Below, piece by piece: positions 8,225-9,039 of a stretch of 33,147 bases of DNA. The notes beneath the pieces are model-generated. The model made no database searches. It saw nothing but the letters and a program-made list of their open reading frames with translations, and was not told where the DNA came from. The position numbers were made by a program, and so were the translations under genes. Source of the DNA: a virus; UHGV virus genome UHGV-0236124. One strand, written 5' to 3'. Each line of letters opens with the position of its first letter. Positions within the stretch are counted from its first letter, which is position 1.

Positions 8225-9039
8225 GTATGGAGCTGATGGTTAAAGCGATGAAAATTCGAGTGGGTAATCCATTGCGAAAACTGGTTCTGATCAAGCTGGC
8301 TGATAATGCCAGCGATCAGGGTGAGTGCTGGCCCAGCTACCAGCATATTGCTGACCAGTGCGAGATTAGCAAACGTTCTGTGATGAATCATATTGCGGCC
8401 CTTTGTGATTCCGGGCTGGTAAAAAAAGTCACCCGGAAAGGTGAAAAAGGTAACTCAAGTAATATCTATCTCCTTCATCTTGATGGTGCAGGAGATTCAC
8501 TAGGGGGTAGTGCAAATAATTCACTATCTGGTGCAGCAAATTCACCAGGTAGTGCAGGAGTTGCACCAGGGGGTAGTGCAGGAGATTCACCCAGAACCAG
8601 TCACTCTTTTGAACCAGTCAAAGAACCAGTCAATGAACCAATAGCTGTTGGTGCATCAGTTGATGAGTCCGTGCGAGTTCGTTCAAACCGACCGGAATAC
8701 TCTCCGGAGTTTGAGCAGGCATGGCTGGCATATCCCAAACGTGCTGGTGGCAATTCAAAATCTGCAGCCTTCAAAGCCTGGAAAGCCCGTTTGAATGAGG
8801 GGGTAAACCCCGAAACCATGCTGGAAGGTGTGAAACGCTACGCGGGCTGGGTATCTGCGATGGGTAACAGCGGCACACAATTTGTGAAACAGGCTGTCAC
8901 GTTCTTTGGTCCGGATCGTCATTTCGAAGAATCCTGGGAAGTTCCTGCGGTATCTGCAGCTAGACGTGAGGACCCGTACTTCAAAGCCAGTTACGACAAC
9001 GTGGACTACAGCCAGATCCCGGCAGGATTCAGGGGGTGA
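8221..9039 (+). CDS. replication initiation protein (O-like, N-terminal HTH)
   Basis: N-terminus LRKLVLIKLADNASDQGECWPSYQHIADQCEISKRSVMNHIAALCDSGLV is a typical phage replication-initiator HTH; Gly/Ser/Ala-rich linker; internal DNA repeats. Confidence 0.7.
   Translation: MSMELMVKAMKIRVGNPLRKLVLIKLADNASDQGECWPSYQHIADQCEISKRSVMNHIAALCDSGLVKKVTRKGEKGNSSNIYLLHLDGAGDSLGGSANNSLSGAANSPGSAGVAPGGSAGDSPRTSHSFEPVKEPVNEPIAVGASVDESVRVRSNRPEYSPEFEQAWLAYPKRAGGNSKSAAFKAWKARLNEGVNPETMLEGVKRYAGWVSAMGNSGTQFVKQAVTFFGPDRHFEESWEVPAVSAARREDPYFKASYDNVDYSQIPAGFRG
8484..8640. repeat. iteron-like direct repeats inside the initiator gene (candidate origin)
   Basis: Repeated ggtagtgca and attcac units at roughly 22-bp spacing (8484-8591), then three copies of GAACCAGTCA (8595-8604, 8611-8620, 8623-8632). 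Confidence 0.45.

Follow-up and report, generated by a model that had tools for sequence, protein, structure and literature searches.

What is an array of repeated DNA doing in the middle of a phage replication gene? This question is raised by UHGV virus genome UHGV-0236124, a sequence of 33,147 nucleotides (nt) that was analyzed over its whole length (the window, 33 kb). Within it, the stretch at 8484-8640 is built of direct repeats and sits inside a 272-codon open reading frame (ORF) at 8221-9039 on the + strand. The initial annotation had proposed that these iteron-like repeats mark the likely origin of replication (ori) inside the initiator gene, as in phage lambda, and comparative tests supported that proposal. 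The window is a lambdoid prophage of the SfV/"Eru6" type, and positions 8486-8644 are probably its replication origin, overprinted on the codons for a predicted disordered linker of its own initiator. The features that matter for this reading are listed below by position, with amino acids (aa) numbered from the start of the initiator.

8221-9039, + strand: replication initiator gene that holds the candidate origin, 272 aa (ORF, Pfam HTH_36, PHROG 270).
8221-8484, + strand: N-terminal winged-helix DNA-binding domain, aa 1-88 (AlphaFold2, Foldseek).
8450-8480, no strand assigned: least stable duplex tract of the gene; it lies directly upstream of the iterons and codes for the wing of the winged helix.
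8486-8500, no strand assigned: iteron 1, GTGCAGGAGATTCAC.
8510-8524, no strand assigned: iteron 2, GTGCAAATAATTCAC.
8531-8545, no strand assigned: iteron 3, GTGCAGCAAATTCAC.
8552-8566, no strand assigned: iteron 4, GTGCAGGAGTTGCAC, with perfect 5-bp arms.
8576-8590, no strand assigned: iteron 5, GTGCAGGAGATTCAC; its start lies 18 nt ahead of the first GAACCAGTCA.
8587-8644, no strand assigned: family-invariant element CACCCAGAACCAGTCACTCTTTTGAACCAGTCAAAGAACCAGTCAATGAACC with GAACCAGTCA copies (from comparison across relatives).
8695-9036, + strand: C-terminal helical domain, ~aa 159-272 (PHROG matches, AlphaFold2).

In this region, Tandem Repeats Finder recovered one array of period 21 (8506-8557), one of period 24 (8531-8591), and one of period 12 with 94% matches (8611-8640). 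The core of the longer repeat, GTGCA-N5-T(T/G)CAC (that is, GTGCA-N5-TKCAC), is an imperfect 15-bp palindrome that occurs five times without mismatch (starts 8486, 8510, 8531, 8552, and 8576) at spacings of 24, 21, 21, and 24 bp. Elsewhere in the window there is a single further exact match. When one mismatch was allowed, 19 iteron matches were found versus 6.0 +/- 3.0 expected, a number that was reached in 0 of 100 shuffles. The palindromes are followed by three exact copies of a shorter repeat, GAACCAGTCA (8594-8603, 8611-8620, and 8623-8632), and by a degenerate fourth copy, GAACCAATAG (8635-8644). The tandem-repeat analysis that the initial annotation had proposed, together with the sequence itself, therefore bears out the coordinates it had given (8484-8640), its period of about 22 bp (measured as 21-24 bp), and its three GAACCAGTCA copies after the direct repeats (at 8594, 8611, and 8623).

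The amino acid sequence alone does not yield these DNA repeats, since synonymous resampling rarely or never rebuilt them. Specifically, when the peptide was kept and its codons were redrawn in 200,000 rounds according to the codon usage of the window, there were at most 2 iteron matches compared with the 5 observed, and three GAACCAGTCA copies arose once. The left arm of the palindrome consists of GGT (Gly) or AGT (Ser) followed by GCA, while the right arm is made up of the final T of GAT, AAT, or GTT, a whole codon (TCA or GCA), and the initial C of CTA, CCA, or CCC. The arms cross codon boundaries in this way and are retained although the encoded residues change. Meanwhile, the first GAACCAGTCA is translated as R-T-S-H, and the second and third, which lie in the other frame, as E-P-V.

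We compared the locus with about 200 related loci. These comprised annotated phage relatives (L001-L014), 80 near-identical viral contigs (L015-L094), and 80 diverged prophages from GTDB genomes (L095-L174), in which the N-terminal domain (N-domain) is 68-88% identical and the hosts include Pseudomonas, Enterobacter, Xenorhabdus, Aeromonas, Shewanella, Marinomonas, and Aliivibrio. Each relative with this N-domain carried 3-8 palindromes at the equivalent place, and the encoded peptide repeats were unrelated to one another (GSAGDS, PSDxMSP, GGAGAA, IGIAGDG, PMPPKS, PVPPES, and VTESH). Across 90 diverse loci, the motif GTGMA-N5-TKCAC was found 295 times in 235-nt segments covering the linker (21,150 nt) versus once in 271,139 nt of flanking sequence, and 65 of the 90 loci held at least three copies. 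In 45 of those 65, the copies were spread over at least two reading frames; for example, GSAGDSP and VVQEIHQ are encoded by the same unit within one protein. The spacing between iterons was 21, 22, 23, or 24 bp in 211 of 227 intervals, and the remainder were mostly approximate multiples. A copy in the other frame was flanked by intervals of 23 and 22 nt, which add up to 45 nt, so that the frame is restored and the helical phase is kept. Vibrio phage D80 and phage mEp010 each translate their own GTGAC-type iteron in two frames. Copy number varied even among genes that were 99-100% identical (4-8 iterons, 2-5 copies of GAACCAGTCA, and ORFs of 268-294 aa), and in phage cdtI 66 extra nt correspond to 3 extra units and 22 aa. 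Because the same DNA repeat is read in more than one frame at a fixed phasing, peptide constraint cannot explain the repeats. The comparison shows that the five palindromes and the adjoining GAACCAGTCA element are under selection at the DNA level.

Some of the diverged prophages carry broken copies of the gene. In L115 (Pseudomonas bharatica) and L148 (Erwinia tracheiphila), the frame slips inside the array and the product ends in PEPVTLLNQ and a stop, and in L150 (Ca. Phlomobacter) the gene is cut short by an early stop, in-frame within the N-domain. From these sequences, the array appears to be a place where inactivating slippage is frequent as prophages decay.

The GAACCAGTCA repeats belong to a ~40-bp sequence, CACCCAGAACCAGTCACTCTTTTGAACCAGTCAAWGAACC, that is nearly invariant across hosts of very different base composition. 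Among 82 nonredundant loci, the share of the commonest codon was 0.93-1.00 at 12 of the element's 13 codons and 0.45 at the last. The corresponding mean for conserved residues of the N-domain was 0.51, indicating that synonymous sites there are randomized. The element's Arg codon is AGA in 100% of cases, compared with 6% of the Arg codons in the window's genes. Furthermore, 5 of 79 loci carried the element in a shifted reading frame, and several Shewanella loci had a repeat spacing of 15 rather than 17 nt, with the peptide PEPVTLEPV instead of PRTSHSFEPV. In 51 of 64 loci, the distance from the last iteron to the element was 18 nt. When IMG/VR was scanned for the element, 120 stretches with one copy apiece were recovered, and this N-domain lay directly upstream of it in all 113 stretches that were testable.

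The iterons fall into classes whose arms differ together with the recognition helix of the initiator, which in the window is roughly aa 50-58 (SKRSVMNHI). The pairings were as follows.

Arms GTGMA/TKCAC: recognition helix S[KR]RSV[MI]xH.
Arms GTGAY/RTCAC (GTGAY-N5-RTCAC): recognition helix ..MRH.
Arms of the GTAGGCC type: recognition helix DRSTVRKH.
Arms of the TGCC..GGCA type: recognition helix SKSAVR[DN]H.
Iteron GGGGCAG-GAG-CTGCCCC (phi24B): recognition helix SRSTVKSH.

The pairing of GTGAY arms with the ..MRH helix was found in three lineages. With the helix set aside, none of them is nearer to the other two than to class-A proteins. The occurrence of the pairing in three lineages speaks for a functional coupling and not for inheritance alone. 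All iteron classes share an identical invariant element, which is therefore not read by the variable recognition helix.

Natural recombinants separate the parts of this system. In P0062, P0068, and P0072, a foreign N-domain with its own iterons is fused to the window-type C-terminal domain (C-domain), and the recombination joints fall exactly on the invariant element. The same N-module with its repeats is also joined to different C-domains; in the loci that we compared for the genes after the initiator (L003, L005, L006, L008, L009, and L010), these genes were DnaC plus DnaB, DnaB, P, or a primase-helicase. The arrangement of these loci shows that the iterons and the invariant element travel as one module with the N-terminal winged-helix domain, and apparent domain swaps indicate that the C-domain is exchangeable among relatives. 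By analogy, the modular logic is that of the lambdoid O proteins, in which the N-domain and origin set specificity and the C-domain sets the helicase partner.

The predicted architecture of the initiator is consistent with such a division of labor. The protein matches Pfam HTH_36 (PF13730) at aa 17-67 (E = 2.8e-11; 43.5 bits versus a cut-off of 25) and PHROG 270, "replication initiation protein" (E = 2.2e-88), which places it among the HTH_36 phage replication initiators (PHROG 270, 8540, and 391). A match to DnaD_N fell below the Pfam threshold (E = 8e-5; 23.2 versus 27 bits). Separate PHROG families match the N-part (aa 1-140) and the C-part (aa 135-272), those of the C-part being PHROG 26426, 3729, and 1701 ("replication protein" and "DnaD-like helicase loader"); the C-domain had no sequence match in Pfam, NCBIfam, or PDB. 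AlphaFold2 predicted a confident winged helix at aa 1-88 (pLDDT 74-94, H-H-H-H-E-E topology), for which Foldseek returned generic winged-helix proteins only, including the DnaD N-domain, at E > 0.01. The C-domain was modeled with moderate confidence (helices 162-225, pLDDT 57-76). Between them, aa 91-157 form a predicted disordered linker (pLDDT below 50), which is the segment encoded by the repeats: the iterons encode aa 89-124 and the invariant element aa 123-141. Given its predicted disorder, the linker would be free to carry DNA signals, while the C-domain is presumably a module for recruiting the helicase or its loader. The initiator is 98-99% identical to genes annotated as "replication protein" in SfV (orf39), mEp460, cdtI, Ayreon, many Stx2c phages, and Stx2a_WGPS2, the last of which is the type phage of the Eru6 replication region (98.8% identity).

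Two further observations concern the C-terminal part. The last ~25 residues of the window-type C-domain exist as three alternative tails (A2 columns 301-334), one of which was found in L003, where DnaC and DnaB come after the initiator. In E. coli proteins P0047-P0050 and P0076, the HTH_36 N-part of the initiator is joined to a RusA domain, which points to deletions that fused rep to rusA in some prophages.

How does the locus compare with known origins? The initial annotation had suggested a comparison with the iterons of lambdoid origins, and the layout indeed matches that of the annotated lambda origin. In the lambda record, the Phage_rep_O domain (aa 22-115) is succeeded at once by four iterons at offsets 349-433 of gene O (spacing 20, 24, and 23), and downstream of them lies a 40-bp tract of A-rich (AT-rich) DNA. 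The window has five iterons, at gene offsets 266-370, directly after the winged helix. Both are palindromic iteron arrays, spaced 20-24 bp apart, that lie inside the gene right after the N-terminal DNA-binding domain. The iterons of lambda are 19-bp imperfect inverted repeats (PMC7466680), whereas that of the window is a 15-bp core with a free 5-bp center. Origins of Stx phages and lambda differ by two iterons and 13 residues (PMC7466680); iteron number thus adds 13 aa in the Stx phages 933W and P27, which have 6-iteron origins, compared with the 22 aa added in cdtI here. Lambda O contacts single strands of its AT-rich tract (PMC7466680). That 40-bp tract is replaced here by the ~40-bp, sequence-invariant GAACCAGTCA element of moderate A+T content, and an invariant element in place of a plain AT-rich tract is a difference of substance from the lambda origin. 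In addition, the window phage, unlike lambda, has no P-like loader gene adjacent to the initiator.

The description of the initiator as "O-like" in the initial annotation holds by analogy of layout, but the protein is HTH_36 and not Phage_rep_O. It had no match to PF04492 (Phage_rep_O) at E <= 0.01, its best match being HTH_36, while lambda O matches PF04492 at 5.7e-36. Homology to lambda O was undetectable by Pfam or by hhalign (A1 versus lambda O, probability 7%). Nevertheless, a remote homology is possible, because HHpred has assigned HTH_36 to O-like N-termini (PMC5509034).

The same layout was seen in L011 (Vibrio phage D80) and L013 (mEp010), at 1735-1900 in each, with N-domains that are 32% and 53% identical to that of the window, respectively. 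Their GTGAC-N5-GTCAC iterons are followed by a clearly AT-rich tract with degenerate AACCAGT-like repeats, which may represent the invariant element in an ancestral or relaxed state.

Likenesses extend to other replicons. In SPP1 G38P/oriL and DnaD-type organizers, a winged-helix N-domain binds repeats in its own gene and the C-part contacts the helicase loader or helicase. The window protein resembles this Bacillus phage system in its weak DnaD_N match and its match to the PHROG "DnaD-like helicase loader," but it belongs to Gram-negative hosts, its repeat architecture is different, and its DnaD_N score is subthreshold. In the iteron plasmids, with the initiators RK2 TrfA, F RepE, R6K pi, and pSC101 RepA, phased repeats adjoin an unwinding element with short direct repeats (13-mers), which the initiators contact as single strands (review PMC4980987). 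The short direct GAACCAGTCA repeats resemble these 13-mers of plasmid and chromosomal unwinding elements. In contrast, plasmid iterons are direct repeats that are bound by monomers and lie outside the rep gene, whereas the iterons of the window are palindromic and lie inside it. Finally, the gene order Rha/Ash, HTH_36 protein, and PerC (yfdN) is shared by the Eru6 region (Stx2a_WGPS2), SfV orf39, and yfdO/yfdN of E. coli K-12 CPS-53. The Eru paper typed genes only and described no origin or repeats (PMC8951638).

Based on these likenesses, a mechanism can be proposed. Dimers of the winged-helix domain would bind the palindromes through the recognition helix (aa 50-58), and the bound dimers would build a phased nucleoprotein array like the lambda O-some. 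The resulting strain could be released by opening of the neighboring invariant element, which is the likelier site, or of the easily melted tract at the opposite end of the array, and the exchangeable C-domain would bring in the replicative helicase at the opened tract. In the window phage, this would be host DnaB, since no phage helicase or loader gene is adjacent. The GAACCAGTCA repeats could be an unwinding or single-strand contact site that is recognized by the invariant face of the initiator and not by its variable helix. On analogy with characterized origins, we tentatively assign the invariant element to the unwinding or loading part of the origin. A broader interpretation, slightly more doubtful, is that CACCCAGAACCAGTCACTCTTTTGAACCAGTCAAWGAACC is a new, sequence-specific component, namely, a universal site of unwinding or helicase entry in thousands of HTH_36-initiator phages of the Gammaproteobacteria, with the variable iterons alone giving replicon specificity. 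Under that interpretation, either the invariant face of the initiator or a conserved host protein would recognize CACCCAGAACCAGTCACTCTTTTGAACCAGTCAAWGAACC, in single- or double-stranded form. If true, the origin would combine a swappable address with a fixed engine, both written over coding sequence in whichever frame was available.

Several observations weigh against an origin at 8486-8644. An AT-rich stretch after the iterons, which the initial annotation had implied, is not evident: the window has no clearly AT-rich tract there (55-57% A+T), the invariant element occupies that position, and there is only a modest conserved dip in stability. The nearest-neighbor profile of the window places the lowest duplex stability upstream of the array and not at the element (-1.13 kcal/mol per step at 8452-8472, with a GC content of 0.35 for the 8450-8480 tract). 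In favor of the element, the mean profile of 84 loci had its deepest local minimum of duplex stability there (+10 to +45), and a second, weaker conserved minimum lay just upstream of the iterons, at -140 to -110 relative to the element. Neither a DnaA box (TTWTNCACA) nor the IHF consensus (WATCAANNNNTTR), both of which are usual in iteron plasmids, was found within 7900-9200. No helicase or loader gene adjoins the initiator in the window, where a PerC/yfdN-like gene is found instead, and this makes the recruitment step a conjecture. Because helix and arms are tightly linked and share their ancestry, their co-variation is partly confounded. Lastly, according to the authors of the Eru paper, nothing is known about their replication proteins (PMC8951638).

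Three other explanations of the conserved repeats were considered. The one that survives best, although we regard it as unlikely, is that the palindromes are operator-like sites by which the protein regulates its own operon (autorepression or a roadblock), or that they serve some other nonreplicative transaction, with replication starting elsewhere. Sites that are palindromic like dimer-bound operators, and a protein that is a generic winged helix, would fit this explanation, as would the lack of an obvious AT-rich unwinding tract in the window; in iteron plasmids, moreover, inverted repeats are textbook sites of autorepression (RepA, RepE, and pi). However, the array is in the middle of the gene rather than at a promoter, and no promoter-like site was found in 7900-9200. 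The lambda iterons, too, are imperfect inverted repeats of 19 bp (PMC7466680). An array of 3-8 phased copies with a fixed 18-nt link to a second conserved element is origin-like, the module pairs with helicase or loader genes in relatives, and the replication module showed no second candidate for an origin.

Less likely again is that the conserved sequences are bound by another protein (a host factor, the product of the 78-aa ORF upstream, or Ash/Rha) or that they are patches of homology that promote exchange of the initiator module. The element is identical whatever the recognition helix, and the recombination joints fall on it exactly, as a patch would predict; the iteron arms, however, change with the initiator's own recognition helix. 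Likewise, the 78-aa ORF travels with the initiator gene in close relatives, but conservation of the upstream genes breaks down in distant relatives, even where these retain both elements. Exchange patches also give no account of the fixed 18-nt distance, the internal spacing, or the strict synonymous conservation from Xenorhabdus to Pseudomonas.

The third explanation, that a low-complexity Gly/Ser/Ala linker gave rise to the repeats incidentally as it grew and shrank by slippage (recent duplication plus peptide constraint), is very improbable: although the linker is predicted to be disordered, copy number differs among near-identical genes, and frameshifted pseudogenes arise in the array (L115 and L148), the DNA unit is translated in two frames at 45 of 65 loci, unrelated peptide repeats are each encoded by a palindrome with 21- to 24-bp phasing, synonymous resampling never reproduced the array, the synonymous sites of the GAACCAGTCA element are fixed across genera, and recent horizontal copying is excluded by N-domains of 68-88% identity with randomized synonymous sites. 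Amino acid constraint alone, which the initial annotation had named as the outcome that would overturn its proposal, is rejected by the reading frames, the two-turn spacing, the co-variation of arms and helix, and the fixed synonymous sites.

The candidate origin and its initiator are embedded in a lambdoid early region with the following genes.

5602-6276, - strand: putative repressor (from gene order and comparison with the LexA-family repressor in L296, described below).
6599-7162: CII-like gene.
7159-7995: Ash-family gene.
7988-8224: 78-aa ORF (PHROG 1153, unknown function; no Pfam match) that overlaps the initiator start codon by 4 nt.
9036-9530: PerC/yfdN-like gene.
9497-9856: LexA DNA-binding-domain-only protein, 119 aa (PF01726, E = 4e-19).
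9920-10243: RusA.
10263-11072: KilA-N gene.

The protein encoded at 9497-9856 lacks an S24 peptidase domain; its gene is flanked by the PerC-like gene and rusA, and the product may be a non-cleavable competitor for LexA boxes. The 78-aa ORF accompanies the initiator in cdtI, PhiR49_2, and L296 and is missing from distant relatives. L296 (NZ_CP148393.1) is a 44.6-kb circular "plasmid" in a complete E. coli assembly that carries the module of Ash, 78-aa ORF, initiator, and PerC. Such a phage may occur here in extrachromosomal or excised form. PLSDB assigns the record no replicon type, and as a sign of autonomous replication it is circumstantial. Plasmid records that contain the module were rejected as proof of replicon function, since they are phage-sized circles.

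Two solitary palindromes in the window match the family iteron consensus, one at 7727-7741 (GTGAAGGTAATTCAC, in the ash-family gene) and one at 29276-29290 (GTGCAGGTAATGCAC, in the tail region), compared with ~0.25 expected by chance in 33 kb. The palindrome at 7727-7741 was present in only 9 of 84 close relatives, those with the same ash gene. We considered both sites as parts of the module and took them to be incidental, as they are not conserved with it. The sole match to an RNA element was to a miRNA model, was subthreshold (22 versus 84 bits), and was attributed to chance.

The initiator is widespread. Its gene is present in 2,718 of 5,426 complete E. coli genomes (about half), and a search for homologs at E <= 1e-5 returned 5,427 protein clusters. 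In the literature that could be searched (for SfV orf39, Eru types, HTH_36, iterons, and the literal repeats), the origin and its repeats are undescribed, and an earlier mention is possible. Taken as a whole, the locus is very probably a functional origin of a known type, in an initiator family that is uncharacterized but widespread.

The locus is an unusually clean natural case of DNA signals overprinted on coding sequence, with one site read in two frames. It offers a code of specificity from helix to site with at least five classes, and it exposes a putative sequence-invariant origin element in a widespread initiator family. The module is also the replication module of SfV, mEp460, cdtI, and Shiga-toxin phages of the "Eru6" type. 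With the candidate origin and its determinants of specificity located, the replication of these toxin-converting phages, their incompatibility or exclusion, and their dependence on host factors become testable.

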